A stretch of 64,000 nucleotides of DNA, from NCBI GenBank assembly GCA_944385895.1, contig CALWYZ010000009.1:1859-65858 (forward strand). The letters are read 5' to 3'. The translations under genes and the position numbers were made by a program. The notes under the pieces were generated by a model. That model did no database searches and was not told where the DNA came from. It was given only the letters and a program-made list of their open reading frames with translations. The number at the start of each line of letters is the position of its first letter. The first letter of the stretch is position 1. Origin of the DNA: an uncultured Clostridia bacterium (lineage in GTDB: Bacteria > Bacillota > Clostridia > Oscillospirales > QAKW01). Positions 1 to 16,729 of this stretch are shown here, in pieces.

Positions 1-17
1 TTTAAGGAGGATTAATC

Positions 18-1166
18 ATGAAAAAGGTAAAAGTCAAGGTAATATGCATAGTTTTATCCTCTATTATGTTTTTGCAAGCGTTTAGTACAGTTACATTTAC
101 AGCAAAGCAAATGGATAAAGCAAGTTCTTTAGAAACGGCTGAATCGGCGGCGTATGCTGTTGAAGAATTAAAATCCAAGCGCGATGCAAACGTAAAACAT
201 TTTAAAATGAGCGACGGCACTTTTGCTGCCGCAACATATGATATGCCAGTTCATTACTATGACGGAGAAGAGTGGCAAGACATAAACAATTATTTGATAG
301 ACGGGACAGATTCGGATGAAAATATCGCAGTCTATGAAAATACAGACAATCCTATAAAAATCAAATTTGCTAAAAAGTCTAACAGCAAAAACATACTAAA
401 GCTGCAGCAAAATAATTATAAGATAAGCTTTGCCCTTTTAGGTAAAGTAAACAAACATGCAGAAGCCCAAAAATTTAATCCGGCAGACGACGGAAATATA
501 ACAACATTAGAAAAAACAGAGTCTAAAATTACTTATGAAAATATTTTTGAAAATGTTGATATTGAATATGTCTTGTCTGGAACAAAACTAAAAGAAAATA
601 TAGTTATACAAAAAGAACTTACAGATTATACTTTTAAGTATGAAATAAAAACAAACGGTCTCACTATGTCCTTAATAAATAATCAAATTATTTTTAAAGA
701 TGATAACGAGACCGTTTTTTATATACCTGCGCCATATATGTATGATGCAGAAGGAGAATTTTCTGATGCTGTTACCTATTCTTTGGAAAATGAAAACGGC
801 AATAAATATATTTTAACTATAACAGCTGACAACAACTGGATTGACAGTGATAATCGTAAATTTCCTGTAACTATTGATCCTACCGTGCAGATGCCCGAAT
901 CAGGAATTGATACATATTATTTTGCGACAGAAAGGAACAACACCATAACTCATTTTGGGCAAAATGTTACACATGTCAATAACGCGCTAAGATACTCAAA
1001 CCTCAGCACCGGCACTTCAAATACAACAAGTCTTTATATGAAAATTAACTTGCCGTACTTAAATGAATTCTTATCAAGACCCGACGACACTTTAAACAGT
1101 GTTTCATATACAGGTGTAACTGTAGAGTTTTCAAGAAATACCAGTAAATTATATAGAAAAGACTAA
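18..1166 (+). CDS. RHS-family wall-associated polymorphic toxin, N-terminal part with signal peptide; reading frame is lost at 1126-1166
   Basis: AAGGAGG RBS a few nt upstream of the ATG. Hydrophobic N-terminal segment VICIVLSSIMFLQAF. The ORF stops at 1166 while another frame is open from 1126 and runs into the YD-repeat ORF. Confidence 0.6.
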   Translation: MKKVKVKVICIVLSSIMFLQAFSTVTFTAKQMDKASSLETAESAAYAVEELKSKRDANVKHFKMSDGTFAAATYDMPVHYYDGEEWQDINNYLIDGTDSDENIAVYENTDNPIKIKFAKKSNSKNILKLQQNNYKISFALLGKVNKHAEAQKFNPADDGNITTLEKTESKITYENIFENVDIEYVLSGTKLKENIVIQKELTDYTFKYEIKTNGLTMSLINNQIIFKDDNETVFYIPAPYMYDAEGEFSDAVTYSLENENGNKYILTITADNNWIDSDNRKFPVTIDPTVQMPESGIDTYYFATERNNTITHFGQNVTHVNNALRYSNLSTGTSNTTSLYMKINLPYLNEFLSRPDDTLNSVSYTGVTVEFSRNTSKLYRKD

Positions 1167-1476
1167 GGAGAACGCTTCTATTGAGCGTACTAAATTTACT
1201 TATGAACCATTTTTCACACAGGTAGAAGATCAGCTGGCAGATTACTATTATTTAAAATATATTTTTAACAGACAAGGCCTAACTGAATATGTTACTGACA
1301 GTGAGGGTAATTCAAAAAAATACGAATACAGTCAAAAGAAAGAAAGCAAAAATAAGCTTAGCTTTGAATCTAATACACGTCGCATACCGGGAAATATAAT
1401 TAAAAATGGAAATTTTAAAACCGGCACGCTGAAAAACTGGAACAGTCAATATGCCAGCTATAATCAGGAAAGTCAG

Positions 1477-4335
1477 ATGCTGTTTATTGACGACCTAGGA
1501 TATGTGAAACAGGAGGTCATTATACCCGTTACCGGCTATTACACACTATCTGCAGTAATCGATAATTATGATGCCGATATCATCAGCTCTACAGATGCAA
1601 GAAACCTTACAACACAATACGAGTATGACAATAACAGAAATCTTACAAAGACAATAAGTCCTTCCGGAATAAACAGTAACAGTAATTATGACCAATATGG
1701 TAATGTTACCTCTGCGAACCTGTCAAAAGGCAATACAACTCTTGAAGGCGGCAGCACTATATATGACGAAAACGGAATGTATGTTACAACTACAACTGAT
1801 GCATTCGGCTACGCTACTGAATATACAGTCGACGAAACTACATTAAAAACTCAGGAAGTAAAATACGCAAAGCCGTCTGCTCAGTCCGACAGGTTTAATT
1901 ATAATGTAGAATACGACTATTATGACAATCAAAAAGCCGCAGTGTCAGAGGGAGATACTTCCACAGTATTGGAGAATTCCGGACCCATAAAAAGCATATA
2001 TGCATTTTATGAGGGTTATACCCCTGCCGTAATGGGCGTATCCTTCGAATACGACGACGGCGAAATAAGCAAAATCAAGCGCAGCGGATATGATTATACT
2101 TTTTATGATACTTATACAGCCGGGAACGAACCTATTGTGGAAGGCACTAAATCATTGCCATACAGTTACAAGTCTTCTGTAAATATTAATGATACCGATT
2201 CCAGCATCTCAACAATAAATTTAGGAACAAATCTTTACGATGCAAGCGGTAACCTGTCAGCCACAATCTATGGAAACACTAACTATCATACTTATGAAAG
2301 AGATGTCTTCGGAAGACTTACCGCTAAAAACACTCTGCGGGATAAGCTGACATACACATATAACAGCAAAAATTTACTGGCCGGAGTGTATTCGGAATAT
2401 AACAATACCTCCAATACATACAACTATGACTTTGCAGGAAGAATGTCTGTAAGCGAATTTTACGACCTCAACAACAGCATAAGCATGAAGCATAAATATA
2501 CTTACAACTCGGCAGATATGCTGACAGGTTTGAAAAGTACATTCACTGATGAGGACGGACAAAGATATGTCAGATATACTGAATATGACTATGACAACGA
2601 AGGCAGGATAACTTCCCAGGACATTTATAAAGAAGGAAGCGGCAGCGTATATCTTGTACCAAGGATACAGTATAATTATAATGATGTAGGACTGCTGACA
2701 GGCACAGTATATTCTGCGGCAAATCAGGTAAGCCTGTCACCTTCCATAAATCGTAATATTACATATAATACAGTAAATAATGATCCCAATAAGCTTACAT
2801 CCCAGATAAAAACATATGATAATTTCAGCTACACTTATGATATTGCCGGTAATATAAAAAGTGTAAGCGGTCCGTATATTAACAGTGCCACTTACTTATA
2901 TGATGAAACAAATCAGCTGACACATGCAAACGGGTTTTATGACAGAGAGCATTTTGTGTATGATTACAACGGAAATATCATAACTTATGAGAATTCATTT
3001 TATGAGCAAGGCTATACAACTGAATATGAATACACATTTAATTATGACAGCTTATGGGAAGACAGATTAATGAGCGTAACGACGGCAAACGGAGCTACAA
3101 TACGTTCATACAGTTATATGGATCAATATGGTGCAGGATCAACGTTACCTACTAGAGACGGAAGATTCAACTTTGATTGGGACGGCAGATTGCTGACCAG
3201 GGCTACCAGAATAAGTAATTATACTACATATGACTACAAATACGATGAAAATGGAAAATTAATTGAAAAGAAAGTAAAAAACGGAGATAATATTGTTCAA
3301 AAGCTGACAAGATATTACTATACAGGCGATGATTTGACCACCGAAGTTCTTTATTACCCTGTTAACGGCAGTTTAGAAGTTGATGTAAAGATCGATTATA
3401 TCTATGACACGACAGGTCTGTCATTTATTATCTTTGAATTTTCCGATCCCTCTAAATATTACTTGACATTGAATAAATACACCTTCTATGTCAAACGTAA
3501 TGCTCAGGGAGACGTGACAGCGCTGGCAGATATAACAAACGGTTATATGGGAGATCAGCTCACATATACTTATTCAGCATACGGAAAGAATTATACTTTG
3601 GATATATCAGGAGATTTATTGTCTGCTGTAGGCAGCCTTAATTCCATCTTATTCAAAGGGTATATGTATGACAGAGACCTTGAGATGTACTATTGCGGCT
3701 CTCGCTGGTATGACCCTGTAATCTGCAGGTTTATAAACGGGGACGCTCAAATATCAGGTATCAACAATAGTATTAAAGGATATAACCTTTTTTCATATTG
3801 TTTTAATAATCCTATAAATATGAGTGACCCTGAAGGTAATTGGCCGCGTTGGATTACTGCCGCAGTGGCAGTTGTCGCGGCAGCAATTTCTGTTGCTAGT
3901 CACATCCTCTGTACTCCGGCTATACCTTCAACAATAATTGCCATAGCAGCAATTGTGCTATATACAGCACAATCGCATCATTTTGATAAGCGCAAAGAAA
4001 AAAACACCGGCATTCCTCCAACTGAAGGCGCAGCTGAAGATGCAAATTGGAAAAAAGTAAAAGGAGAGGATGCAAAACTCCATCAATTTACGGCAGAAAA
4101 CAATGACAATGTAAAATATTTATCTCCGGACGGTCACAGAGAAGCTGTTTATGATAAAGGTGGTAATCTTGTGGTGGATTCACGAGATATTGGTACATAC
4201 AACTTTTATCCGAAAATTAATGAAGAAGATTTATTAGGTCACACAATTGCAGATGTAATCCCTTATTTTATATTCGGCAATGACGACGATGATCCGGGGC
4301 CTATTATAAATTCAATTATAAAAATATTCAACTGA
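1477..4335 (+). CDS. RHS/YD-repeat polymorphic toxin body with core tip and C-terminal toxin domain CT1 (3844-4335)
   Basis: Many YD-type repeats (QYEYDNNRNLT, YDYDNEGRIT, YTYNSKNLL). Core tip YYCGSRWYDPVICRFINGD...NNPINMSDPEGNW, with DPEGNW at 3826-3843. My own translation shows the frame open from 1126; the first Met in the track is 1477. Confidence 0.85.
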   Translation: MLFIDDLGYVKQEVIIPVTGYYTLSAVIDNYDADIISSTDARNLTTQYEYDNNRNLTKTISPSGINSNSNYDQYGNVTSANLSKGNTTLEGGSTIYDENGMYVTTTTDAFGYATEYTVDETTLKTQEVKYAKPSAQSDRFNYNVEYDYYDNQKAAVSEGDTSTVLENSGPIKSIYAFYEGYTPAVMGVSFEYDDGEISKIKRSGYDYTFYDTYTAGNEPIVEGTKSLPYSYKSSVNINDTDSSISTINLGTNLYDASGNLSATIYGNTNYHTYERDVFGRLTAKNTLRDKLTYTYNSKNLLAGVYSEYNNTSNTYNYDFAGRMSVSEFYDLNNSISMKHKYTYNSADMLTGLKSTFTDEDGQRYVRYTEYDYDNEGRITSQDIYKEGSGSVYLVPRIQYNYNDVGLLTGTVYSAANQVSLSPSINRNITYNTVNNDPNKLTSQIKTYDNFSYTYDIAGNIKSVSGPYINSATYLYDETNQLTHANGFYDREHFVYDYNGNIITYENSFYEQGYTTEYEYTFNYDSLWEDRLMSVTTANGATIRSYSYMDQYGAGSTLPTRDGRFNFDWDGRLLTRATRISNYTTYDYKYDENGKLIEKKVKNGDNIVQKLTRYYYTGDDLTTEVLYYPVNGSLEVDVKIDYIYDTTGLSFIIFEFSDPSKYYLTLNKYTFYVKRNAQGDVTALADITNGYMGDQLTYTYSAYGKNYTLDISGDLLSAVGSLNSILFKGYMYDRDLEMYYCGSRWYDPVICRFINGDAQISGINNSIKGYNLFSYCFNNPINMSDPEGNWPRWITAAVAVVAAAISVASHILCTPAIPSTIIAIAAIVLYTAQSHHFDKRKEKNTGIPPTEGAAEDANWKKVKGEDAKLHQFTAENNDNVKYLSPDGHREAVYDKGGNLVVDSRDIGTYNFYPKINEEDLLGHTIADVIPYFIFGNDDDDPGPIINSIIKIFN
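3520..3845 (+). repeat. rhs core-tip segment reused at the 5' ends of orphan modules
   Basis: 3520-3744 is near-identical to 9916-10140, and 3680-3845 to 6861-7026. Shorter degenerate copies lie at about 5323-5470, 8516-8679, 12833-12985 and 14456-14634. Confidence 0.85.
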
Positions 4336-5470
4336 GGTGGTATTGCTATGAAAAAATGGATGATCATAACACTGTCAATTACATATGCCATTGTATTAAA
4401 CGGTACTGTAATATTGCTTATACTCAACAGTAATTACTGGTATTCCAAAAAGCTTGTTAGTGCTATATACGATCATGATATTAAAAAAATAGAACAGATA
4501 TTAGAAAAAAAGCCCGATTGTGTTAATACCTTTCCTAACATTTTGCCCAATTCAATCACCTCTATTATAGAGGCTTCTTCAAATTATCCCTTAACGATTG
4601 CATGTGACCTAGGCTACATGGATGTCGTGAAATTATTGGTTGAATCGGGAGCTGATGTTAATATAGAAGATAGCCCTACAGCGCTTTCAGCAGCATATAA
4701 TACTCTATCAGAAAATTGGTATGAAATATCTTTGTATCTGATAGAAAACGGAGCTTCACTTGACTACCATACAGTTTATCATGCAGGAGTATTTGAAGAT
4801 ATTGTAAGCAGGTATCCGAGAGATCGTTCCCCCGAAGGTGCAGAAAAGGTATATAAATCCTTTTTTTATGCTTTTGAGCACTGCGACAAAAGCTTGATAG
4901 ATTGGAACAGAGTTTTATTTGATAGTATTACATATAACTTAACAGTCGTTGTAGAATTCCTATTAGATAACCAATACTGCGGTGTAAACAGTTATTTATA
5001 CCCATTCTGTACACCACTTATGAGAGCGGTAGAATATGAAAGGACTGATATAATACAGCTGCTGCTTGACAGAGGCGCTGACAAGACACTGAAGAACGAC
5101 GAGGGGAAAACAGCATACGATATTGCACTGGAAGAAGGCCATACCGATATCGCACAGATGGTCAAACCGTAAATAGATTTAACAATTTTAATGACATCTT
5201 TTTCATATCAAACAGATGCAAAATCAATTATTCCCTACTCTTATATAAGCATGCATATATAAGTCAATGCTTCCAAAATGGACAATCCATTAATGACACA
5301 TAACAGAAATACGTTTGTTTTTTTGAGATGCAGTATTGCACCTCTGCTGATATGCTCCTGTAATCTGCAGGTTTATAAACGGGGACGCTATGTTTCTGGA
5401 AGGCCAGGGACTTATTGGCTATAACATGTTTGCCTACTGCAAAAATAATCCGGTAAACAGAGTTGATCCT
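4326..5470 (+). repeat. About 1.1-kb duplicated block: ankyrin immunity gene, 150-bp linker and degenerate rhs tip (partner at 11832-12985)
   Basis: Homology starts at attcaactgaggtggtatt (the last codons of CT1) and continues through the whole ankyrin gene and linker to gttgatcct. Confidence 0.8.
4348..5172 (+). CDS. Membrane-anchored ankyrin-repeat protein, candidate immunity protein for CT1
   Basis: Starts 12 nt after the toxin stop, with a GAGGTGG RBS. N-terminal TM helix. ANK-like repeats (TPLMRAVEYERTDIIQLLLDRGADKTLKNDEGKTAYDIALEEGHTDIAQ). Confidence 0.7.
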   Translation: MKKWMIITLSITYAIVLNGTVILLILNSNYWYSKKLVSAIYDHDIKKIEQILEKKPDCVNTFPNILPNSITSIIEASSNYPLTIACDLGYMDVVKLLVESGADVNIEDSPTALSAAYNTLSENWYEISLYLIENGASLDYHTVYHAGVFEDIVSRYPRDRSPEGAEKVYKSFFYAFEHCDKSLIDWNRVLFDSITYNLTVVVEFLLDNQYCGVNSYLYPFCTPLMRAVEYERTDIIQLLLDRGADKTLKNDEGKTAYDIALEEGHTDIAQMVKP

Positions 5471-6075
5471 TTGGGAGAAGCATGGTGGCATTGGGCAATA
5501 GGCGCTGTAATAGTAGCGGCATGTGCAGTAGCTACAGTTGCTACTGCCGGTGGTTTTGTAGCAGCTGCAAGTGCCGTAGCTGCTGTTAGTAGTGGCATGG
5601 CCGCTTCAACAACAGCTGCTACGATAGCGCCAGGTGCTTTTTTAGGTTCTGCAACGGTGTATGGTGTCGCATCGGCCACTGCTATAGTTAGCTCAACTTC
5701 TGTAGAAGAATTTAATGAAAAGGAAACTGGTCAATTGTTGCAAAGACTGTTATGGGAGCTGTATTGGGCGGGAAAATTGCTTCTCAATCCACAAAGAATT
5801 CAACACCGACAAAAGTAAGTACACCCTCAAACGGAACAACCGGAAAAACAGAACCTAATAACTTAATCGAGCAATTATCTATGGAACAAGTAAAATCAAA
5901 TCCATCATCAGGTACACCTTTATTAAAAATTACAATGAATGATCCTCGGTGGGCTTGCTCTGATGGCTGGATAAAAATGCAACAAATTATACCAACATCA
6001 CAAGGTAACGTTAATATTCACTATGTCTATAATCAGACATTAAAAATCTTTGATGATTTTAAATTTGTACCATAA
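5390..6075 (+). pseudogene. Orphan rhs toxin tip CT2, frameshifted
   Basis: Begins with GQGLIGYNMFAYCKNNPVNRVDPLGEAWW. The upstream core-tip copy has lost a base (YCTSADMLL*). A second frame change near 5717-5727 splits it into the track ORFs 5390-5818 and 5752-6075. Confidence 0.6.
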
Positions 6076-6088
6076 AGGAGAATATAAT

Positions 6089-6511
6089 TTGAACAATTTT
6101 ATAAAAATACAAAAATTATGGCGTGATAAAGAAATAATTCAGCTAAAAGTCATATGTTCATCTGAACTAATAACAGCAACTGCAAAAATATACGTTTCAG
6201 ATAATTTAATAGATGAATTGATTTATCAAATAAATCGATTTTTAGAGGCTAAAGTTACAGAAAGTATTTGGTCAAATGAGTTTAAAGGAGATGATTCTTC
6301 GACGTGTGTTTCTTTTAGATTTTTACACAAAGATAAGTTGGGCCATTTATTAATAGAAGTTTATTTGGAAATTGATGACGGGGGAAGATATAGTAAACAT
6401 AATTGCTGCTTTTATATAAAAACAGAAACTGGATTATTGTTGAAATTTTGCGAAAATTTATCACAGCTCAAAAGTGATATTGATGATGTAAGCGTTAATT
6501 TGAATGTATAA
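6089..6511 (+). CDS. Candidate immunity protein for CT2 (TTG start)
   Basis: AAGGAG at 6075-6080, then TTG at 6089 in the frame of the 6050-6511 ORF. It immediately follows the CT2 stop. No recognisable domain. Confidence 0.5.
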   Translation: MNNFIKIQKLWRDKEIIQLKVICSSELITATAKIYVSDNLIDELIYQINRFLEAKVTESIWSNEFKGDDSSTCVSFRFLHKDKLGHLLIEVYLEIDDGGRYSKHNCCFYIKTETGLLLKFCENLSQLKSDIDDVSVNLNV

Positions 6512-6634
6512 CTTTAAGATTTAAATGTCTATTTATTAAAAATACTATTATAGTAATGTTTAATTATGATAGTTTTAAACCGCTATAAAGGTCAAGTTTT
6601 TTAGATTATCAATAATTTAATTTTTATATTATAG

Positions 6635-6711
6635 ACGATGCCGGCAAAACAGCATACGATATTGCAATGGAAGAAGGCCATACCGATATCGCACAGATGG
6701 TCAAACCGTAA
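6635..6711 (+). pseudogene. 3' remnant of an ankyrin immunity gene
   Basis: aaacagcatacgatattgcaatggaagaaggccataccgatatcgcacagatggtcaaaccgtaa is identical to the 3' end of 11854-12684, but nothing upstream of it is retained. Confidence 0.8.
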
Positions 6712-6865
6712 ATAGATTTAACAATTTTAATGACATCTTTTTTATATCAAACAGATGCAAAATCAATTATTCCCTACTCTTATATAAGCATGCATATATA
6801 AGTCAATGCTTCCAAAATGGACAATCCATTAATGACACATAACAGAAATACGTTTGTTTTTTGAG

Positions 6866-7573
6866 ATGTACTATTGCGGCTCTCGCTGGTATGACCCTGT
6901 AATCTGCAGGTTTATAAACGGGGACACTAAAATATCTGGTATCAACAATAGTATTAAAGGATATAACCTTTTTTCATATTGTTTTAATAATCCTATAAAT
7001 ATGAGTGACCCTGAAGGTAATTGGCCTCAATGGATAAAAAACACTGTTAAATGGGTAACTAAAAATGTTGTTAAACCAGTCGTTAAAACCGTAAAAAATA
7101 CCCTATCCAAATTTGATGCCACATTTTCTAAAGGTAGCAATATTAGTTTTGCAATAATTAATTTTAGTTTTAATATTCAAGGCGGTATATCGATAGACAC
7201 TAAAGGAAATGTTGCAATACAACATTCCACTGGAATTGGTTCATCGACAGAATCTCTTACCTTTTCTGCTACAACGTATAAAAGTGTAACTAATGCACCA
7301 AATATAGAAAAACTTGAAGGCAACGCTTATCAGATAGGAGGATCGGTAGGAGTCCCTGTATCAAACATCCCGCTATCTGCTGGAGCTGATTTATCAATTA
7401 TACCAGATTATGAGGAAAACAAAAAGTATTTAGGAATATCCTCCGGTGTAGGAGTAGGAATGACTGGAGCTGAAATTCATTTAGAAAGCGTTAATACTAT
7501 GACATTTGTTGATTATAAATTCAATGTATTTAATATAGCTGAAAATATTTATATCAAAATTATGGAGTGGTAG
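6866..7573 (+). CDS. Orphan rhs toxin tip CT3 (intact ORF starting at the Met of LEMYYCG)
   Basis: MYYCGSRWYDPVICRFINGDTKISGINNSIKGYNLFSYCFNNPINMSDPEGNW matches the main rhs tip. The following roughly 180 aa are Ser/Thr/Gly/Val-rich with no recognisable motif. Confidence 0.65.
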   Translation: MYYCGSRWYDPVICRFINGDTKISGINNSIKGYNLFSYCFNNPINMSDPEGNWPQWIKNTVKWVTKNVVKPVVKTVKNTLSKFDATFSKGSNISFAIINFSFNIQGGISIDTKGNVAIQHSTGIGSSTESLTFSATTYKSVTNAPNIEKLEGNAYQIGGSVGVPVSNIPLSAGADLSIIPDYEENKKYLGISSGVGVGMTGAEIHLESVNTMTFVDYKFNVFNIAENIYIKIMEW

Positions 7574-7575
7574 GT

Positions 7576-8289
7576 ATGAGGCATATACGTTATATTTTTA
7601 CAATCCTATCGGTACTTCTTTTACTGACTTATATCAGAGCAGAAGTATTAGCAATAGACACAGGCTTTGCCACTGAGACACTGCCAGAAAAAAATATAAA
7701 TTCTTTCTTAAAATATATAAAATTATCTATGATAACTGAAGAACCGCGCAAGATCGCAATAGATTGTTTTGATGTCAATGAAAAAGGTGAAATAGCTATA
7801 GGCAGAAGCGAGTACAATAATAAAACTGTCTGTATTTATACGAGTGACGGTGATTTTCAATATGGTTACAGTTTTTTTAGTCAAGGTTCATTCGGTGTTG
7901 AACTTAATAATGATATTTTACTAATTTATTTTGTTCGCAGTGATATTGTAATTGCTGTTAATCCAATGGGAGAAATAGAAAGCATTCTTGGAATAAAAAA
8001 CACTATTGAAAATAACTCTTATTGGAATAATTTTGTTCATTTAACTAAACGAAAAATCGGTGATACTGAATATACTATAAGAAACGACATGGGTTTTTTT
8101 AATTTACTTGCATCATCATATTCTCAATTAGTTATTACAGATAAGAACGGCAACGAAAACATTATATATGATGTCAATTCAGCTCAATTTTCATATATGT
8201 TAAAAAGTTTTATTAATAAATCTGTAATTGTTTGTATTGTTATGGGTGCGATTATTTGTCAGCTTGTCATAATCTATCGCAAACATTAA
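7576..8289 (+). CDS. Candidate immunity protein for CT3 (signal/TM at the N-terminus, TM at the C-terminus)
   Basis: ATG lies 3 nt after the CT3 stop, with GGAG upstream. Hydrophobic N- and C-terminal segments. Confidence 0.5.
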   Translation: MRHIRYIFTILSVLLLLTYIRAEVLAIDTGFATETLPEKNINSFLKYIKLSMITEEPRKIAIDCFDVNEKGEIAIGRSEYNNKTVCIYTSDGDFQYGYSFFSQGSFGVELNNDILLIYFVRSDIVIAVNPMGEIESILGIKNTIENNSYWNNFVHLTKRKIGDTEYTIRNDMGFFNLLASSYSQLVITDKNGNENIIYDVNSAQFSYMLKSFINKSVIVCIVMGAIICQLVIIYRKH

Positions 8290-8529
8290 ATCTTATAACA
8301 GTATTACACATCCTGAAACAGCTTTTGTTAGGACAAAAATAAGACATATGGAATAATTTCACTAAAAGCATTGACAGTATTGGTTCTGACAAAAGCTATA
8401 ATATCTGATTGGTGATACTATATAAATATGCACACTTTTTTAAGCAAGCATATAATAAACAATATTACATACTGGACAATCCATTAATGACACATAACAG
8501 AAATACGTTTGTTTTTTTGAGATGCAGTA

Positions 8530-9215
8530 TTGCGGCTCTGCTGGTATGACCCTGAAATCTGCAGGTTTATAAACGGGACAGCTATGTTTCTGGAAGGCCA
8601 GGGACTTATTGGCTATAACATGTTTGCCTACTGCAAAAATAATCCGGTAAACAGAGTTGATCCTGAAGGTGAGTTTTGGAAAGAAATCGGACATTTTTTT
8701 CTAATGTTTGGAGTAATTTAAAAAATTGGGCAAACAATACCTTTGGATTCGGAAGCTCTACTACAACAACTATTGCACATTATGAAACATCGATTATATC
8801 AGACCCAGCTCCAATAACTATTGATACAGGAAGTAAAACTACTCAAATCATTTCCGAAAAAGGAGATTCATCTAAGCCTATTTCATTTTATTCAAACAAA
8901 GATACTACAAATCCAACATCATCTACTGCCGGAATAAAGTTAAATATATCCGATTTCACCTTGGGTATCAATTTTGGGTTTGATAATATTGGTATTTCGG
9001 GGACATTAACAGATGGTGACTCATCGAATTGCATTGCCTTAAAAGTAAATTTATCTGAATTAAAAGTTGGAATAGAAGATTCAATATCAATCAAGTGGGA
9101 CGGTACAACTACAAAGACATATACAAATGTAAGTGCAAATGGTTGGGCAATAGTAGCAGTAGCAGCTTTTATAACTACTGGACAAATAATTCAAACACCT
9201 GCTTATATCAAATAA
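8530..9215 (+). pseudogene. Orphan rhs toxin tip CT4, frameshifted in a T7 run
   Basis: The tip GQGLIGYNMFAYCKNNPVNRVDPEGEFW is followed by a T7 run at 8694-8700. One extra T would join 8530-8721 to 8676-9215 (..EFWKEIGHFFSNVWSNLKNW..). Confidence 0.6.
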
Positions 9216-9237
9216 ACTTATAGGAGTTACTATAGAT

Positions 9238-9852
9238 ATGTTTATTATATCAAGAGTAATAATAGGATTCATTTTCTTTGCATGTATGATTATTTTAATA
9301 AAAAAACTTAAATTTGAGCATAAGCTTAAAGGATATGTTTTTTCTGTAATTTTATCGGTAATATTAATTACCGTTATTGCATTTTTACCTTTTGAGAATT
9401 TTTTTATTACGTTTGATTCTCCACAATCAGTTTACAACTATATGAATTTTGGTAAATCTAATGTTAAGTTAGTTATAAACGGTAAAAACAGTGATTTTGT
9501 AATTAACGATAAAATAAACTCATACTCTTATTTAATCGTTCCAAAATACAAAGATGGTTGGAAAATCGGATTAGGTGCTGATACTAAAATGATTATGCAA
9601 AAAATATATGATGATATTATTATAAACGTATTTCAATATAAAAACACTAATGATTATTTTATTGTATTATTAAATACTAATGGAGGCCCAATAAATTTAA
9701 AAGACAGTAATAATTCAAAATTTTATTCATTAGAAAAAACAAATAATCAACTTAATAAAGTTTTTATTACATATTTTCTTAATATATCTAATTTTGATTC
9801 TAAATATTGGTTAAGCATAAATGATAAAAAAATCTGTTTGCTAAATGATTAG
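9238..9852 (+). CDS. Candidate immunity protein for CT4 (polytopic N-terminus)
   Basis: Has its own RBS (TAGGAG), lies 22 nt after the CT4 stop, and has two N-terminal TM helices. Confidence 0.5.
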   Translation: MFIISRVIIGFIFFACMIILIKKLKFEHKLKGYVFSVILSVILITVIAFLPFENFFITFDSPQSVYNYMNFGKSNVKLVINGKNSDFVINDKINSYSYLIVPKYKDGWKIGLGADTKMIMQKIYDDIIINVFQYKNTNDYFIVLLNTNGGPINLKDSNNSKFYSLEKTNNQLNKVFITYFLNISNFDSKYWLSINDKKICLLND

Positions 9853-9912
9853 CTTATTTAGTATATTAGATATATAGCAAAAATAATTTAACCAAAAAGT
9901 TGATATCTGCAC

Positions 9913-10767
9913 ATGGCACTGGCAGATATAACAAACGGTTATTTGGGAGATCAGCTAACATATACTTATTCAGCATACGGAAAGAATTATACTTTGGATA
10001 TATCAGGAGATTTATTGTCTGCTGTAGGCAGCCTTAATTCCATCTTATTCAAAGGGTATATGTATGACAGAGACCTTGAGATGTACTATTGCGGCTCTCG
10101 CTGGTATGACCCTGAAATCTGCAGGTTTATAAACGGGGACAGCTATGTTTCTACTGGACAGGGACTTATTGGCTATAACATGTTTGTCTACTGCGGAAAT
10201 AATCCGGTAAACAGAGTTGATCCTGAAGGTGAGTTTTGGATCCCAGCGCTTGTACTTGCCATCGGCAGTCTTTTATTATTTTCAAGCTGTTCAACAAACG
10301 ATAACGAGTTTAAGTCAGCAGACGAAGCCGCTAAGGATTTTGCAAAAAAGACTTATAGTGCAACTGAATATACAATGCATGAGTATTCTACGGAAATTTA
10401 CACTACTAATAACGGTAAAACATATAAGTATACCGAACCGGCAATAGGAAGTCCACATCAAGCTACAGGATTTGACCTTAATCATGTACCTGAAGGCGGA
10501 ACTACTGTTGCCTATGCTCATACTCATCCTAATTATAATGGTTTTTCAGATGGAGATATAGAAACTGCCAATCATTTTAATATAGATGCGTATGTAATAA
10601 GTCCTAATCATGAATTGTTAAGGTATATTAAAGGTTCTACTGATTATGGAGGTCAATTCATTTCCTCCATAGAACCGGATCCGTTGACCTCAGCACAAAA
10701 ACAACAATTAAATCCCTGGAGAATCGCATGGGATGAACACATAGCCGAGTGTGATAAATGCAATTAG
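9913..10767 (+). CDS. Orphan rhs toxin tip CT5 with a JAB/MPN-like (DUF4329-like) C-terminal domain
   Basis: It has the longest 5' homology to the main rhs (ALADITNGY...YYCGSRWYDPEICRFINGD). The tip ends ...NNPVNRVDPEGEFW. The C-terminal domain contains AHTHPNYNGFSDGD (10519-10557). Confidence 0.7.
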   Translation: MALADITNGYLGDQLTYTYSAYGKNYTLDISGDLLSAVGSLNSILFKGYMYDRDLEMYYCGSRWYDPEICRFINGDSYVSTGQGLIGYNMFVYCGNNPVNRVDPEGEFWIPALVLAIGSLLLFSSCSTNDNEFKSADEAAKDFAKKTYSATEYTMHEYSTEIYTTNNGKTYKYTEPAIGSPHQATGFDLNHVPEGGTTVAYAHTHPNYNGFSDGDIETANHFNIDAYVISPNHELLRYIKGSTDYGGQFISSIEPDPLTSAQKQQLNPWRIAWDEHIAECDKCN

Positions 10768-10780
10768 GAGGAAATACATT

Positions 10781-11227
10781 ATGATCAAAAAAATACACGC
10801 AGCATTAATTATTTTTATACTTTTGCTTATTCTCTCCTCATGTAATAGGAATATTACAATTACAACTACCGACGTAGAGAAAGAATCCGATATAAATGAA
10901 GTCTGTATAGAAAAAGGTGTAAAACAGTGGGAGGATATTGGAAAAACGGTGGAATATTCATGCGTTGCTGATGAAGAAACCGCCATAAAAATTGCAGATG
11001 CAATAACATCACAATTACAAAAGCAGGGGTATTTTGATGATATTTTCTCTGATGGACTTTTATATCTCAGCAATGCTTTTTTCAACATCGAAGATAAAGT
11101 GTGGATCATGACCTACGGATCATACAAGCTTGATGATTCCGGTAATAAAGTTCCTATTCCCGGCTCGGATTTTTGTATGGCGATAAGTGAAGATGACGGC
11201 AGAGTATTACGTATGTGGTTTTATTAA
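10781..11227 (+). CDS. Lipoprotein, candidate immunity protein for CT5
   Basis: AGGAGG RBS. Signal peptide with lipobox-like ILSSC. Starts 14 nt after the CT5 stop. Confidence 0.5.
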   Translation: MIKKIHAALIIFILLLILSSCNRNITITTTDVEKESDINEVCIEKGVKQWEDIGKTVEYSCVADEETAIKIADAITSQLQKQGYFDDIFSDGLLYLSNAFFNIEDKVWIMTYGSYKLDDSGNKVPIPGSDFCMAISEDDGRVLRMWFY

Positions 11228-11237
11228 GGAGATACAA

Positions 11238-11810
11238 ATGCGTTGTAAATTATATATTATTTTGGGGTCCGTTTTATTTGCTATTATATTGATAATAATT
11301 TCTTTGTATTTCATTATAAAGATTAATGAAAAATATGATACACCGGAAAAATCATTTTTAAACAGCGCTCCGAACAATTCGTCATTAATAAAAATAATTG
11401 ACGAAGATAACGCAAGCATATTGGTTTACAAATCTAAAAACGGCGAATATTTATGCGACACAATATACAAAACTGACGACGGATGGTCATCAATCAAGCT
11501 GAGCCGTATTGACAGCACACGTTGTTCATTAAGTAAATACAAAAATGATACTACATCTTATATTGATGTAATGTATACCAATAATAAATACTTTATAACG
11601 GTATGCTATCAATCATACAAGTACAAGACGTATTATAATTCAGCTACAATAACAGACAGCATAAATTCCGATTTTAAAGCATTTTCCGTCTTTGACAGCT
11701 ATGAAGAGCGAAACGGTATAATAATATTTTACCTTGTATTGGATGAAATTCCGAATGATTATTATATTCTGTCCGGCGGTAAAATGATAAATATTGATCT
11801 TGAGACCTGA
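11238..11810 (+). CDS. Membrane-anchored hypothetical protein (second immunity-like ORF)
   Basis: AAGGAG RBS, N-terminal TM helix, no recognisable domain. Confidence 0.45.
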   Translation: MRCKLYIILGSVLFAIILIIISLYFIIKINEKYDTPEKSFLNSAPNNSSLIKIIDEDNASILVYKSKNGEYLCDTIYKTDDGWSSIKLSRIDSTRCSLSKYKNDTTSYIDVMYTNNKYFITVCYQSYKYKTYYNSATITDSINSDFKAFSVFDSYEERNGIIIFYLVLDEIPNDYYILSGGKMINIDLET

Positions 11811-11831
11811 AACAATCAGCAGATTTTTATC

Positions 11832-12985
11832 ATTCAACTGAGGTGGTATTTCTATGAAAAAATGGATGATCATAACACTGTCAATTACATATGCCATTGT
11901 ATTAAACGGTACTGTAATATTTCTGATACTCAACAGTAATCACCGGTATTGCAAAAAGCTTGTTAGTGCTATATACGATCATGATATTAAAAAAATAGAA
12001 CAGATATTAGAAAAAAAGCCCGGTTGTGTTAATACCTATCCTAACATTTTGCCCGATTCAATCACCTCTATTATAGAGGCTACTTCAAATTATCCTTTAA
12101 CGATTGCATGTAGACTGGGATACATGGATGTTGTGAAATTATTGGTTGAAGCGGGAGCTGATGTTAATAATTATAAAGACGGTCACGCTACAGCGCTTTC
12201 AGCAGCATATAATACTCTATCAGAAGATTGGTATGAAATATCTTTGTATCTGATAGAAAACGGAGCATCACTTGACTACGATACAGTTCATCATGGAGGA
12301 GTATTAGAAGATATTGTAAGCAGGCATCCGGGAGAGGATTCCCCAGGTGGTGCAGAAAAGGTATATAAATCATTTTTATATGCTTTTGAGCACTGCGACA
12401 AAAGCTTGATAGATTGGGACAGAGTTTTATTTGATAGTATTACATATAACTTAACAGTCGTTGTAGAATTCCTATTAGATAACCAATACTGCGGTGTAAA
12501 CAGTTATTTATCCACATCCTATACACCACTTATGAGAGCGGTAGAATATGAAAGGACTGATATAATACAGCTGCTGCTTGACAGAGGTGCTGACAAAACA
12601 ATGAAGAACGACGAAGGGAAAACAGCATACGATATTGCAATGGAAGAAGGCCATACCGATATCGCACAGATGGTCAAACCGTAAATAGATTTAACAATTT
12701 TAATGACATCTTTTTTATATCAAACAGATGCAAAATCAATTATTCCCTACTCTTATATAAGCAGACATATATAAGTCAATGCTTCCAAAATGGACAATCC
12801 ATTAATGACACATAACAGAAATACGTTTGATTTTGAGATGCAGTATTGCACCTCTGCTGATATGACCCTGTAATCTGCAGGTTTATAAACGGGGACAGCT
12901 ATGTTTCTACTGGACAGGGACTTATTGGCAAAACATGTTTGCCTACTGCGGAAATATTCCGGTAAACAGAGTTGATCCTGAAGGT
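11832..12985 (+). repeat. Second copy of the 1.1-kb ankyrin-immunity/linker/tip block
   Basis: See 4326-5470. Only about 10 nt of the CT1 3' end (ttcaactga) precede the immunity gene here. Confidence 0.8.
11854..12684 (+). CDS. Ankyrin-repeat immunity paralog with no cognate toxin upstream (orphan immunity)
   Basis: Collinear and highly similar to 4348-5172 along its whole length, with the same RBS context. Confidence 0.7.
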   Translation: MKKWMIITLSITYAIVLNGTVIFLILNSNHRYCKKLVSAIYDHDIKKIEQILEKKPGCVNTYPNILPDSITSIIEATSNYPLTIACRLGYMDVVKLLVEAGADVNNYKDGHATALSAAYNTLSEDWYEISLYLIENGASLDYDTVHHGGVLEDIVSRHPGEDSPGGAEKVYKSFLYAFEHCDKSLIDWDRVLFDSITYNLTVVVEFLLDNQYCGVNSYLSTSYTPLMRAVEYERTDIIQLLLDRGADKTMKNDEGKTAYDIAMEEGHTDIAQMVKP

Positions 12986-13462
12986 GAGTTTTGGATAGCT
13001 GCTATAGCAATAGTAACAACAGCTTTAGTGTTATTTAATCATGTAGTCAATAAAATTAATTTTAATAAAATTAGAGATGAAGTTTTAGATCAAAGATCTA
13101 TTTCAGAAGCAACACAAGAAATAAATAATATCTTGGAAAAATATAATAGTGAATTTGAATCTGAATCAAATAAAGCTATAGTGTCTGAAAAAGACTTTAC
13201 TGAATCATCTATTAAAATCCAGAACTCATATAAAGTTACTTCAAAATATGACAGACAATATATATGTGAAATAATTGCGCACACAGAATCAGTTAATACT
13301 GATTCATCTAAAATTGCAACTGAATGGTATTTACATAATTTAGCTTATAATTTGAATATTTTGCCTTCAAGCAGCAAAGACGCAGACTTGGATTTTTATG
13401 GAGATAAAAGAAAGTTAGTAGAATACAGTGGGCTAATTTTAAGAATATTTGGAGTAAGGTAA
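12935..13462 (+). CDS. Orphan rhs toxin tip CT6 (5' tip region degenerate)
   Basis: MFAYCGNIPVNRVDPEGEFW, then a TM helix and a roughly 140-aa unassigned domain. The upstream tip copy is out of frame (ggcaaaacatg versus ggctataacatg). Confidence 0.55.
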   Translation: MFAYCGNIPVNRVDPEGEFWIAAIAIVTTALVLFNHVVNKINFNKIRDEVLDQRSISEATQEINNILEKYNSEFESESNKAIVSEKDFTESSIKIQNSYKVTSKYDRQYICEIIAHTESVNTDSSKIATEWYLHNLAYNLNILPSSSKDADLDFYGDKRKLVEYSGLILRIFGVR

Positions 13463-13463
13463 A

Positions 13464-14381
13464 ATGAATAAAAAAATTTTCTACGCTATTATTCTGTCAG
13501 TATTACTGTTGGCGATTCTGAATTTGATTTTTATAACGGTATTTATTCTGTCTTTTCGATTAGATGATATAAAAAACACTAAAACAGATGAGTTTATGCA
13601 ATCTGTTAAAAGCGAGACAGATTCTCATATATCTTACGTTTTGTACGATAATTTATATTACAACGGTAAAATATATGATGGATACCAAAATTCATGTACA
13701 TTTGCTGTTGTAGACGATTACTCATATAGCCTTATAAAGACAAATGAAGGCTGTGAATACGGCAAAGAAGAATGGAAACTTGAGCGTCGCAGCTTGTCTG
13801 ATAAAACTAAAAAGATATTATATAATGATATTTTTAATAATTACTACAATAAATATTCTGAGTCCGATTGGGCGGTTCAAGATGTATACTATTACGACGG
13901 TAAAATAGTAATAAATGATTTAGAAAAAGTTGTTGAGTACAACTTGTCAACTGAAGTATTTAAAACATACAGCTATGCTGATTACAATTTCCCTATTGGT
14001 ATTTCTGTTGAAGCGGTAGACAAAAATACATTGAAATTTACAAAGAATGGTCAAACAAAGGAGTTAAAACTTGATAATGCATTAAATCAAAGTAAATCCT
14101 TAAAAACTATTTTTGATGAATTCAATAAGGAAAATACTTGGGACAAAAAGTCAAAGGTCAGAAATATACTTGCTTATACAGATTTAAACGATACTGTTTA
14201 CTATCCTTGGGTTGAAGTTAACTCTAATAAATGTTATATATTTGGTACGGTTTATAACAGAGAGGGTTGGCAATGGTGCGTTTTAACAGAATATGATTTT
14301 GAATCAAATTCCGTTAAATTTGTAGACACTATATATACTGGTGACACTATAACTGATATTTATTTTGTATATACAGATTAA
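13464..14381 (+). CDS. Candidate immunity protein for CT6 (N-terminal TM anchor)
   Basis: ATG lies 1 nt after the CT6 stop, with GGAG upstream. 305 aa with an N-terminal TM helix. Confidence 0.5.
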   Translation: MNKKIFYAIILSVLLLAILNLIFITVFILSFRLDDIKNTKTDEFMQSVKSETDSHISYVLYDNLYYNGKIYDGYQNSCTFAVVDDYSYSLIKTNEGCEYGKEEWKLERRSLSDKTKKILYNDIFNNYYNKYSESDWAVQDVYYYDGKIVINDLEKVVEYNLSTEVFKTYSYADYNFPIGISVEAVDKNTLKFTKNGQTKELKLDNALNQSKSLKTIFDEFNKENTWDKKSKVRNILAYTDLNDTVYYPWVEVNSNKCYIFGTVYNREGWQWCVLTEYDFESNSVKFVDTIYTGDTITDIYFVYTD

Positions 14382-14455
14382 GTGCAATAAATTATAACTA
14401 TTGTTTTATATAATACATTTTAATTGACAAGTAAAATAGCTTATAAATCAACCGG

Positions 14456-14634
14456 TATGCTCCTGTAATCTGCAGGTTTATAAACGGGGACAGCTATGTT
14501 TCTGGAAGGCTCAGGGACTTATTGGCAAAACATGTTTGCCTACTGCAAAAATAATCCGGAAAACAAGTTGATCATGAAGGTGAGTTTTGGATCCCAGCGC
14601 TTGTACTTGCCATCGGCAGCCTTTTATTATTTTT
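14456..14634 (+). pseudogene. Terminal degenerate rhs tip remnant
   Basis: Homologous to the CT5 region 10125-10283 (..gagttttggatcccagcgcttgtacttgccatcggcag..) but with multiple indels and no ORF. Confidence 0.6.
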
Positions 14635-14877
14635 AAGTTTTTTAAAAAATGACAATAAATATAAATCAGCGTATATATATTTGCTAATTTTTGCCATCGA
14701 TATTTGTGCATGATGTATAATTATTTTGATTTTTATATCTATCTATTGACATATATTGCATATTATTATATTGTATATAAGAAAGGAGGTTACCGTTATG
14801 AAATCTATATGATCAAATTGCGCAGCTGTGCATTGAGAGTTACCACTCACAGACTCAGCTAAGAAAGGAGATATAAT

Positions 14878-15876
14878 ATGCAAAAGTTAATATCTGTTTT
14901 ATGCGTTATTTTACTTTTTACATCTGTGTTTATGGCAATGCCGATCTATGCATCAGCAAACGATTACCAAGATAACCTGAACAGCTATGCATATCAAGAC
15001 ATTGATTCTGGTGACTGGTTTTACGAAGCGGCGGTACGTGCAAAGGAGCTGAACATAATGACCGGCATGTCCCAAAAAAATTTTGAGCCGGACACGCTTG
15101 TCACGCGCGAGATGTTCCTGACAGCACTCGAGCGAATGAAAATACATAATGGCATCAGTTTTAGTACGTTTTCCGCTTTCAGTGATATAAAAGAAGACAA
15201 ATATTACACAAAAGCTGTCAAATGGGCTGAATATAACGGCATTACAAAAGGTATTTCAGCCTCAGAGTTTGGGATTGGGCTGAACGTCACGCGTCAGCAA
15301 ATTGTAACATTTATTTACAGATATCTGCAGGACGGATATATCAAAATCAATTTGAAGCCGGCACAATCCCCTGCTGCGGAATTTTTCGACAGGCCTTCGG
15401 AATACGCAAAAGAAGCTGTCGATTATATGCGAAGCACAGGAATAATCGATGGCATGGGTGACGGTAAATTTGAGCCTGACGCACCAGCTACCCGGGCACA
15501 AATTGCGGCAATGCTTGTCAGGCTGTACGATGCAATGCGGAATGCTGACTTTGAATTCAATATAAGCCCGGATATTTCAAAAATCGAGGTCGTACATCAA
15601 ATACTGGATCCGCTCACCGGCCAGATACCGAAATCGAGATTTATAACGGACAGCTCTGAAATAGCAGATATTATAAATCAAATAAACAGCACTCATATAA
15701 CAAGCGGTACAGATATCGAGCTCACTGTCGGATGGGAATATGTGGCACGTTTCTCTGATAAACAGGGTAAAATTGTTTTTGCTGTCATGTTTACCGAAAG
15801 TTATATAAAAGAATCGAATTTTAGGTTCGAAACTAATGCATTTGAAAGATTTATAACATTTATAAATAATAATTAA
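14878..15876 (+). CDS. SLH (S-layer homology) domain protein
   Basis: Signal peptide. SLH-like repeats (DWFYEAAVRAKELNIMTG, YYTKAVKWAEYNGITKG, YAKEAVDYMRSTGIIDGMGDGKFEPD). Confidence 0.75.
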   Translation: MQKLISVLCVILLFTSVFMAMPIYASANDYQDNLNSYAYQDIDSGDWFYEAAVRAKELNIMTGMSQKNFEPDTLVTREMFLTALERMKIHNGISFSTFSAFSDIKEDKYYTKAVKWAEYNGITKGISASEFGIGLNVTRQQIVTFIYRYLQDGYIKINLKPAQSPAAEFFDRPSEYAKEAVDYMRSTGIIDGMGDGKFEPDAPATRAQIAAMLVRLYDAMRNADFEFNISPDISKIEVVHQILDPLTGQIPKSRFITDSSEIADIINQINSTHITSGTDIELTVGWEYVARFSDKQGKIVFAVMFTESYIKESNFRFETNAFERFITFINNN

Positions 15877-16202: not shown

Positions 16203-16229
16203 TTTTTGCATATGAATTCGAACTCTTAC
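16203..16229 (+). repeat. Left copy of a 27-bp direct repeat, tttttgcRtatgaattcgaactcttac
   Basis: Matches 18787-18813 at 26 of 27 positions. Confidence 0.85.
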
Positions 16230-16288: not shown

Positions 16289-16729
16289 TTATAACTGTTG
16301 CATCATTGCTGAGATTGTTTGCTTCGCTATTCCAATAGCAATATCATGGGCTAAGCTTTCAAGGAAATGAAGAGTGTGATTACCAACTTTATTTGCAATA
16401 GATTTGGTTTTCTCCCATACAGTAGGTTCTTTAATGGTTTCGGCAAATTGATGTCCTTTCATTGTTACATCCATTATTACACAATCGTTTATGTATGTTG
16501 CCTCTTTATCTTTAGGCTGCTCGCATGATGTTTTTATGTATTCAGATTCTTTTAATTTTAAAACAGAATACATTATGTCCTTCTTTTGAAATTGCTGTAA
16601 TTCATTTGATTCATACATTTCTTTCAGCTCTATGATTTCACATTTCCAAATATATCCGGTTTCGGTATAATCAAGATTTTTGATACAATATAAAAGTACC
16701 GCTCTTAAACAATCTATGTTGATTCTCAT
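16289..16729 (-). CDS. YjcQ/DUF2513-like winged-helix protein
   Basis: The N-terminus MRINIDCLRAVLLYCIKNLD...IMYSVLKLKESEYIK resembles the YjcQ family by recollection. Not verified by a search. Confidence 0.45.
   Translation of the reverse strand: MRINIDCLRAVLLYCIKNLDYTETGYIWKCEIIELKEMYESNELQQFQKKDIMYSVLKLKESEYIKTSCEQPKDKEATYINDCVIMDVTMKGHQFAETIKEPTVWEKTKSIANKVGNHTLHFLESLAHDIAIGIAKQTISAMMQQL

Follow-up and report, generated by a model that had tools for sequence, protein, structure and literature searches.

We analysed 64,000 nucleotides (nt) of contig CALWYZ010000009.1 from an uncultured Clostridia bacterium. This stretch, hereafter the window, begins with an rhs locus, made of the pieces of a gene for a Sec-dependent Gram-positive Rhs toxin followed by an array of C-terminal toxin tips (CT) and immunity genes. 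In intact Rhs and Tc systems, the protein is exported by means of its signal peptide, and its YD repeats form a shell around the C-terminal toxin, which the Rhs core tip (RxYDP...D...DPxG) releases by cleavage; cognate immunity comes from a small gene that lies downstream. The features of the locus are listed below, with toxin tips numbered CT1 to CT6, immunity open reading frames (ORFs) I1 to I6, repeat families D1 to D9, and P and L numbers as our handles for database proteins and related loci (RBS, ribosome-binding site; aa, amino acids).

18-1166, forward strand: 382-aa ORF, the N-terminal piece of the former rhs gene, with a putative Sec-type leader (MKKVKVKVICIVLSSIMFLQAFSTVTFTA) and an N-terminal domain, ended by an early stop, TAA 1164-1166
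1144-1145, forward strand: junction of deletion A, where about 419 codons (P0001 residues 376-794) are lost and the frame changes (tblastn with P0001 and P0002)
1477-4335, forward strand: 952-aa ORF with the Rhs shell remnant, core tip and CT1; first start codon at 1477, no signal peptide
1576-1585, forward strand: junction of deletion B, an in-frame loss of 717 nt (239 codons) with 10-nt microhomology, GATGTCATCA / GATATCATCA
3571-3843, forward strand: Rhs-associated core with the autoproteolytic tip (...RWYDPVICRFINGD...NNPINMSDPEGNW), TIGR03696
3844-4335, forward strand: CT1, in which a hydrophobic leader of two helices (3844-3972) is followed by a toxin domain of 120 aa (3973-4332)
4348-5172, forward strand: I1, ankyrin-repeat immunity protein with an N-terminal membrane anchor (Ank_2, 3.6e-21; RBS GAGGTGG)
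5096-5323, forward strand: repeat D1, copy 1, preceding the next tip
5323-6075, forward strand: orphan module 2, with a degenerate tip, a hydrophobic leader rich in Gly and Ala ('AWWHWA') and a tip domain of 80 aa
6053-6511, forward strand: I2, cytosolic by prediction, the sole immunity ORF without a membrane segment (hydropathy)
6635-6862, forward strand: repeat D1, copy 2, a remnant without the ankyrin gene (self-blastn)
6854-7573, forward strand: orphan module 3, with a tip 97% identical to 3680-3854, then CT3 (7022-7573); an intact ORF without RBS
7576-8289, forward strand: I3, membrane-anchored immunity ORF with RBS
8432-9215, forward strand: orphan module 4, with a partial spacer, a tip (8517-8680) and CT4
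9238-9852, forward strand: I4, multi-pass membrane immunity ORF with homologs in L019 and L003
9913-10767, forward strand: orphan module 5, an intact ORF with a core piece, a tip, a leader ending in lipobox-like LLFSSC, and CT5 (Tox-JAB-2 / DUF4329)
10781-11227, forward strand: I5a, lipoprotein-type immunity ORF by hydropathy (MIKKIHAALIIFILLLILSSC...), RBS AGGAGG
11238-11810, forward strand: I5b, second membrane ORF, with RBS and without a toxin of its own
11832-12684, forward strand: last 22 nt of CT1 and a second ankyrin immunity gene (I1b, 11854-12684; Ank domains) without toxin, 93.5% identical to 4326-5470
12608-12835, forward strand: repeat D1, copy 3
12833-13462, forward strand: orphan module 6, with a degenerate tip (TGA and an indel) and CT6; the longest ORF, 12935-13462, begins within the tip
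13464-14381, forward strand: I6, membrane-anchored immunity ORF with RBS
14451-14670, forward strand: terminal remnant, a tip and ~100 nt from the start of a CT5-like leader, the frame being broken by indels (families D2, D3 and D9)

The former rhs gene lies in two pieces, each collinear with its homologs. By eye, the leader of the first piece shows positive charge in its n-region, a hydrophobic core of 15 residues, and TFTA ahead of KQ, and the product of 18-1166 is 64% identical to residues 1-375 of P0001. The Rhs part is open from 1129 in a different frame; its 952-aa ORF is identical to a database protein (P0121) and is preceded by a possible RBS, AGGAAAG, 5 nt 5' of the ATG at 1477. YD (RHS) repeats are recognized in it by PF05593 (45 bits, cut-off 22; RHS_repeat 1.3e-11) and by TIGR01643 (YD_repeat_2x; 19.4 bits, cut-off 15.8), and the core by TIGR03696 (56.2 bits, cut-off 32.5), at residues 808-896 of the translation of 1150-4332; the latter profile also exceeds its cut-off in modules 3 and 5. 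The core domain ends, as in Rhs proteins, in DPxG directly before the variable CT. Hence, the original prediction of a core tip followed by a CT of about 160 aa was right, the tip reading ...YYCGSRWYDPVICRFINGD...NNPINMSDPEGNW and the CT measuring 163 aa. The same prediction had drawn a single rhs gene over 18-4335, coding for an intact Rhs protein with a signal peptide, and this has to be abandoned, because the first ORF stops at 1164-1166, the Rhs part is in another frame, and two deletions, one of about 419 codons and out of frame, the other of 239 codons and in frame, separate the pieces from a complete gene.

These deletions became apparent by comparison with the closest full-length relatives, P0001 (64% identity) and P0002 (51-58%, 2,100 aa). 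Related Rhs proteins are typically 2,000-2,200 aa long, and the pieces in the window total some 1,440 codons. In tblastn alignments, residues 1-375 of P0001 match window 18-1145 (frame +3), residues 795-942 match 1144-1584 (frame +1), and residues 1183-1739 match 1564-3255 (frame +1). The DNRLRE domain, at residues 363-475 of P0001 and P0002, is largely lost with deletion A, and the segment absent at deletion B corresponds to P0001 residues 943-1182. As a consequence of both deletions, the first of them out of frame, the signal peptide is cut off from the shell and toxin: no uninterrupted frame runs from export signal through shell to toxin, given the stop at 1164-1166 and the frame change at about 1145. 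Programmed frameshifting at the latter position was considered and rejected, because the junction is that of a 419-codon deletion and has no slippery site.

Three other contigs bear on the break. A Logan contig (L001, run ERR4096492) is 100% identical to window positions 1-3591 and breaks off at the start of the repeat; it is possibly from the same sample as the window and may not be independent. Two contigs from other samples, L021 (ERZ27307699) and L022 (ERZ17292900), are 99-99.5% identical to the window and have the junction of deletion A and the same stop codon. Both retain 717 nt without counterpart in the window (L021 936-1652, L022 3500-4216), so that deletion B is found in the window strain and not in these two. 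L021 has an additional 1-nt deletion at window position 1498. The sister strains encode the same truncated N-terminal product (P0352), and the one cluster at at least 90% identity that contains this ORF has truncated forms only. In the GTDB species set, relatives reach about 30% identity only. Judged from these sequences, the main rhs delivery gene is broken, and the break is not an assembly error, because its junction recurs in the Logan contig, in L021 and in L022.

The array downstream is held together by two kinds of repeat. Core-tip DNA (family D2) occurs seven times within 3520-14670, with starts at 3704, 5346, 6885, 8540, 10100, 12856 and 14451. The six further copies have 68-98% identity, with self-blastn E-values of 1e-17 to 1e-109, and the proposed kinship of the 5' ends of the modules with 3520-3845 thus withstood self-comparison. 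Module 5 has kept 225 nt of core (3520-3744 equals 9916-10140 at 98%). The end of CT1, the ankyrin gene, the spacer and the tip are duplicated as a block, 4326-5470 matching 11832-12979 at 93.5% identity. The second repeat, D1, joins the final 77 nt of the ankyrin gene to the 150-nt spacer, and its three copies are 97-100% identical; the one at 6635-6862 is a third partial ankyrin 3' end that had been overlooked before. Part of D1 also lies 5' of module 4 (8432-8516), again without the ankyrin gene. The presence of the ankyrin 3' end and spacer before modules 3 and 4 suggests that both once stood behind a CT1-ankyrin cassette.

The six CTs are mutually unrelated, in agreement with the earlier remark that each module carries a different C-terminal sequence. 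Several toxin parts are damaged. CT2 is split between two frames near 5717-5727, CT4 has a 1-nt frameshift at the T7 run 8694-8700 (the alignment with the homolog P0009 switches from frame +2, which ends at ...WKEIGHFF, to frame +1, which starts at FSNVW...), and TGA replaces the TGG of the tip at 5348-5350 in module 2 and at 12858-12860 in module 6. When the 24 nt 5' of the starts were inspected, no RBS was found before any orphan toxin ORF; RBSs are present at immunity ORFs. The array of orphan tips with a Sec-type protein, as first described, thus stands as an Rhs array in a Gram-positive chromosome, with its tip copies, ankyrin copy and terminal remnant, but the main gene is not intact and two of the five supposedly coding orphan tips, CT2 and CT4, are frameshifted.

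Most of these tips match no Pfam family, and CT5 is the exception that had been foreseen. It matches DUF4329 (PF14220) with 38.7 bits against a cut-off of 28.6, and its motif HTHPNYNGFSDGD (the sequence reads AHTHPNYNGFSDGD), of the form HTH...S..D, fits the H[ST]H, S, D signature of Tox-JAB-2, given as H[ST]H...S..D for that family (PMC3482391). The other five, CT1, CT2, CT3, CT4 and CT6, had no match to a Pfam family; CT2, CT3, CT4 and CT6 had no toxin-domain match in NCBIfam, and phmmer gave no sequence match in the PDB for CT1-CT6, nor did profiles of CT1-CT3. Profile searches of the kind once recommended, which covered every CT in Pfam and every one except CT1 in NCBIfam, therefore brought a family to CT5 alone; when the tails of homologs were compared with Pfam, Ntox24 was added, on a relative of CT2 whose tip is a different one. 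The expectation of undescribed toxin families is borne out to the extent that five CTs lack a Pfam family, but these are not peculiar to the locus, as CT1-CT3 recur elsewhere. At their C-termini, Rhs proteins of 1,900-2,200 aa can be aligned with CT2-CT4 and CT6, the match to CT6 being in a full-length Rhs (P0039). The 18 full-length homologs of CT2 are all on Rhs proteins and align across the repaired frameshift; all 56 homologs of CT3 are likewise on Rhs proteins. A model of the CT2 tip domain by AlphaFold2 (AF2) has one helix and four strands (predicted local distance difference test, pLDDT, 85) and no PDB match by Foldseek.

The CT1 domain is widespread, with 800 cluster representatives at E<=1e-3 in the wider protein space. 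Its carriers are Rhs proteins and one multi-toxin protein with eCIS-core, AHH and TNT domains, and a CT1-like tip ends an Rhs ORF in the related locus L002. The AF2 model has a pLDDT of 90, and neither phmmer, profile nor Foldseek searches found a significant PDB match. The best one is the AMOP domain of human Isthmin-1 (ISM1; 9c6t), with a profile E-value of 0.14, a Foldseek E-value of 0.11 and a template-modelling (TM) score of 0.45; as both matches are below threshold, we take them as a lead only. No member of the CT1 family matched the AMOP families in Pfam. A weaker thread of our results is the possibility that AMOP domains of animals have a bacterial relative in the toxin domain of CT1. 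CT1 and the AMOP domain of ISM1 have a ...GT.N...H...DVLPW motif in common. Loss of a catalytic cysteine in CT1 (CHQ to LHQ) was discarded, because this position varies between C, L, M, A and Y across the family.

Each of the eight immunity ORFs is open, and the RBS is strong in seven of them. The original prediction placed a small ORF with its own RBS 1-25 nt after each of five orphan tips; the pattern is there at every CT, but the CT stops lie -23 to +22 nt from the next small ORF, and the GGAGG-like RBS is weak for I2. The partnerships also extend beyond the window. A CT1-like tip adjoins an ankyrin ORF in L002. The ORF following the CT2 homologs of L017 and L018 is 53% identical to I2. Homologs of CT3 and I3 are adjacent in L007 and L041 (51% and 51% identity), and the identity of I4 is 51% with the ORF that follows a CT4 homolog in L019, and 37% with an ORF of L003. 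In total, five of the six pairs of tip and next ORF reappear side by side at the ends of full-length Rhs genes of other gut Clostridia. Since these adjacencies are conserved at unrelated Rhs termini, CT1/I1, CT2/I2, CT3/I3 and CT4/I4 are probably cognate toxin/immunity modules. I5b shows weak collinear similarity to I4 (25% over 117 aa; phmmer E 1.6e-4, BLASTP E 0.024) and, as a possible distant relative of it, may represent an orphaned immunity gene belonging to the CT4 type. Profile searches gave no family match for I5a, which is why its assignment as an NTF2-type immunity protein was dismissed.

The partners of these toxins give hints of where they may act. Hydropathy gives N-terminal membrane segments to I1, I3, I4, I5a (with a lipobox), I5b and I6, and none to I2. 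Since all but one of the seven kinds of immunity protein have a membrane anchor or are lipoproteins, most toxins of the array probably act at the cell envelope. CT2, with its hydrophobic leader and predicted cytosolic immunity protein, probably acts in the cytoplasm. The tips themselves start with a strongly hydrophobic stretch in CT1, CT2, CT5 and CT6 and not in CT3 and CT4, and such a leader is present in 48 of 72 full-length relatives. The CT2 leader recurs on Rhs proteins with other tips, one of them Ntox24.

We surveyed the association of leaders with the next ORF in 69 non-redundant tip/next-ORF pairs from related loci (L002-L084). After tips with a leader, the next ORF was non-membrane in 30 cases and membrane in 12; after leaderless tips, it was membrane or exported in 18 and non-membrane in 9 (Fisher p = 0.003). 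Three of the six pairs in the window (CT1, CT5 and CT6) belong to the minority class, which makes the rule statistical rather than absolute. It is conceivable, although we would rather doubt it than rely on it, that in Sec-exported Rhs toxins of gut Clostridia the stretch right after the autoproteolytic tip sets the site of action, hydrophobic, Gly/Ala-rich leaders (in some cases with a lipobox-like ending) carrying cytoplasm-acting toxins into or across the target membrane and leaderless toxins acting at the envelope, where membrane-anchored immunity proteins would block them. If true, the link between leader and immunity location would be a simple sequence rule predicting where Gram-positive Rhs toxins act. 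In four of the full-length relatives the leader has a lipobox-like ending. At the start of CT5 (~10241-10300) and in P0002, P0033, P0063 and P0105, a signal-peptide-like hydrophobic run stands immediately behind the Rhs cleavage motif and ends in lipobox-like [AS][GS]C, as if an entire lipoprotein precursor had been taken over to serve as a tip.

Arrays of this type are not confined to the window. At least two tips were found in 20 of the 31 related loci of at least 8 kb, one locus having five, and Rhs orphan arrays are thus common in this clade of gut Clostridia. The different CT of L021 (P0350), which is unrelated to CT1 and sits on a 99% identical core, is direct evidence of tip exchange within the lineage. 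Near-identical I1, I6 and CT5-module proteins are present in other assemblies.

Taken together, our results suggest, with good though not full confidence, a decaying Sec-dependent Gram-positive Rhs locus with displaced cassettes, which would no longer deliver a toxin and would persist mainly as an immunity bank and cassette store. The 3' end of the core has repeatedly received new tip/immunity cassettes by recombination, each time with displacement of the older ones downstream. The outcome is the six displaced modules and the remnant, joined by the tip repeat and by the unit of ankyrin 3' end and 150-nt spacer. Deletion A, common to the sister strains, has parted the signal peptide from the shell, and the strain-specific deletion B is a further, in-frame loss. 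Toxin delivery would thereby have been lost, and the array may persist mainly because its immunity genes protect from Rhs toxins that neighbouring Clostridia release, and because it stores toxin cassettes.

Several points weigh against such an account. The contrast between 0 lesions in 5.4 kb of immunity genes and at least 5 in ~8 kb of toxin coding sequence gives p of about 0.08 in our own estimate under a uniform model, and is suggestive only. Between the window and L021 the core differs by 9 synonymous and 11 non-synonymous changes, and between the window and L022 by 8 and 12. This is an excess of synonymous changes over neutral decay, which may point to a recent break or to some constraint still acting on the 952-aa ORF. 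The pairing of CT6 with I6 is weakly supported elsewhere, by a weak collinear match of I6 to 303-aa ORFs after a CT6 homolog in L020. A second intact rhs gene elsewhere in the genome could use the cassettes of the array, our view being limited to 64 kb.

The same observations can be read in other ways. An intact signal-peptide Rhs over 18-4335, active as a weapon and interrupted by a mere sequencing or assembly error, would explain why both ORFs of the main gene are collinear with homologs, why the core tip carries the expected motifs and why CT1 and I1 are intact. We nevertheless regard it as extremely improbable: the break is the junction of a 419-codon deletion rather than a single-base error, it is found with the same stop in two assemblies from different samples, as well as at 100% in the Logan contig (possibly of the same sample), and the total of ~1,440 codons falls short of the 2,000-2,200 of the relatives. 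It is also conceivable that the gene is split but functional. The shells of TcB/TcC assemble from two parts, and the 952-aa ORF could similarly be exported with a partner, or else could form, from ATG 1477, an intracellular toxin-antitoxin-like pair with I1. Its 952 open codons, the hint of constraint in the synonymous excess between strains and the possible RBS speak for it, as does the reported intracellular, toxin-antitoxin-like activity of an orphan Rhs in Salmonella (PMC7043789). Yet this ORF has no signal peptide, ~660 residues of the shell and N-terminal domains are gone, I1 is predicted to face outside the membrane, which is unfit for a cytosolic toxin, and L021 has an extra 1-nt deletion in the same upstream region, all of which make a working split gene unlikely.

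At the other extreme, the locus could be a wholly dead relic in which the immunity genes are also non-functional and merely have not yet accumulated lesions. The multiple independent lesions of the toxin parts fit such a relic, and the contrast between intact immunity and broken toxin genes is statistically not decisive. We hold complete decay to be quite unlikely in view of the 8 of 8 immunity ORFs that are open, seven of them with a strong RBS, of the retention of the ankyrin gene in two copies at 93% identity, and of the near-identical I1, I6 and CT5-module proteins in other assemblies. A locus that has lost delivery and still keeps its immunity genes and cassettes thus remains our preferred account.

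The chromosomal surroundings give the locus some context. The locus has 33.5% G+C (guanine plus cytosine) against 40.5% in the flanking chromosome. The remaining ORFs scanned in the window are housekeeping genes of an anaerobic Firmicute (IF-2, NusA, TruB, RibF, Fe-hydrogenases, Lon, AckA, ScpA/B and Spore_YtfJ), and none of them is a gene of a type VI (T6SS) or type VII (T7SS) secretion system, just as the original prediction had it. Its label of a spore-former receives modest support from Spore_YtfJ at 48546-48935 and from the upstream neighbour of rhs, named by eye as CotH-like. A scan for promoters and terminators gave the same counts as in shuffled sequence and is consequently uninformative on orphan promoters. 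The neighbouring genes are the following.

L001 3-1592, upstream of window position 1, reverse strand (divergent): CotH-like gene, named by eye from the sequence
14878-15876, directly 3' of the array: gene for an SLH-domain protein with three S-layer homology repeats

The CotH-like gene, the immediate upstream neighbour of rhs, codes for a signal peptide and Cys-rich C-terminal repeats. The SLH-domain gene implies a surface bearing an S-layer, which would be a barrier to any incoming Rhs toxin. Farther downstream, a 27-nt direct repeat (16203-16229 and 18787-18813) flanks 2.6 kb with a DUF2513 ORF (16289-16729) and a 459-aa ORF that has no Pfam match; this stretch may be a small inserted element. 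A Gut-1 RNA (RF01706, 90 bits) adjoins tRNA-Pro(CGG), the two lying at 18935-19011 and 19045-19121 on the reverse strand.

Polyimmunity loci and acquired interbacterial-defence islands are related kinds of locus, and the window shares features with these and with several other known systems. WapA of Bacillus subtilis and WapA-CT of Streptococcus suis are Sec-dependent Gram-positive Rhs toxins (PMC12704120). The window gene resembles WapA in its putative Sec leader at the N-terminus, its shell of YD repeats, the Rhs core tip, a polymorphic CT and an immunity gene downstream, and its intact relatives have a DNRLRE domain like that of S. suis WapA. It differs in that the defining wall-binding domain of WapA, CWB2 in B. 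subtilis and LysM in S. suis, was not found in the window protein or in P0001 and P0002 (no Pfam match to a cell-wall-binding domain of either type in the window ORFs or these two relatives). It also differs in the absence of a SecF-like or SrtB gene upstream, where the neighbour is the divergent CotH-like gene, and in being broken.

Enterobacterial Rhs orphan arrays form by C-terminal displacement (PMC3150448, PMC3967940). As in these arrays, the displaced tips of the window retain core homology and their own immunity genes, the orphans lack translation signals, and the tip of the main gene differs between strains. In contrast, the window array has no T6SS context, is longer than most (seven tips), follows an inactivated main gene, and has joints that are also marked by a second repeat unit, the ankyrin 3' end with spacer. 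The hydrophobic leaders recall the entry domains of CdiA-CT in contact-dependent inhibition (CDI) and the glycine-zipper or transmembrane-domain (TMD) translocation segments of T6SS effectors (PMC7858069, PMC10240207, PMC7773334). They share with them a hydrophobic or Gly/Ala-rich stretch before the toxin and a modular use, the CT2 leader being found also with an Ntox24 tip. Unlike those segments, they stand directly after the Rhs cleavage site of Sec-exported Gram-positive proteins, and their role in entry is putative only.

CT5 is like Tox-JAB-2 / DUF4329 in exceeding the Pfam cut-off and in its H[ST]H...S..D signature. The reported partner of Tox-JAB-2 is Imm-NTF2-2 (PMC3482391), whereas that of CT5, I5a, is a lipoprotein without family match. 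Polyimmunity loci have also been described (PMC3482391). The window has in common with them several intact immunity genes in succession, among which I1b and I5b lack a usable toxin, but these genes still reside in toxin cassettes behind an rhs remnant and not in a dedicated mobile island.

Overall, the locus is ordinary though well preserved, and it leaves the known picture of polymorphic toxin systems unchanged. Within that picture, our analysis documents long Rhs orphan arrays as common in uncultured gut Clostridia and provides conserved toxin/immunity pairs outside the curated libraries, among which CT1 belongs to a very large family. It also indicates that an Rhs locus can outlive its delivery gene with its immunity genes intact.

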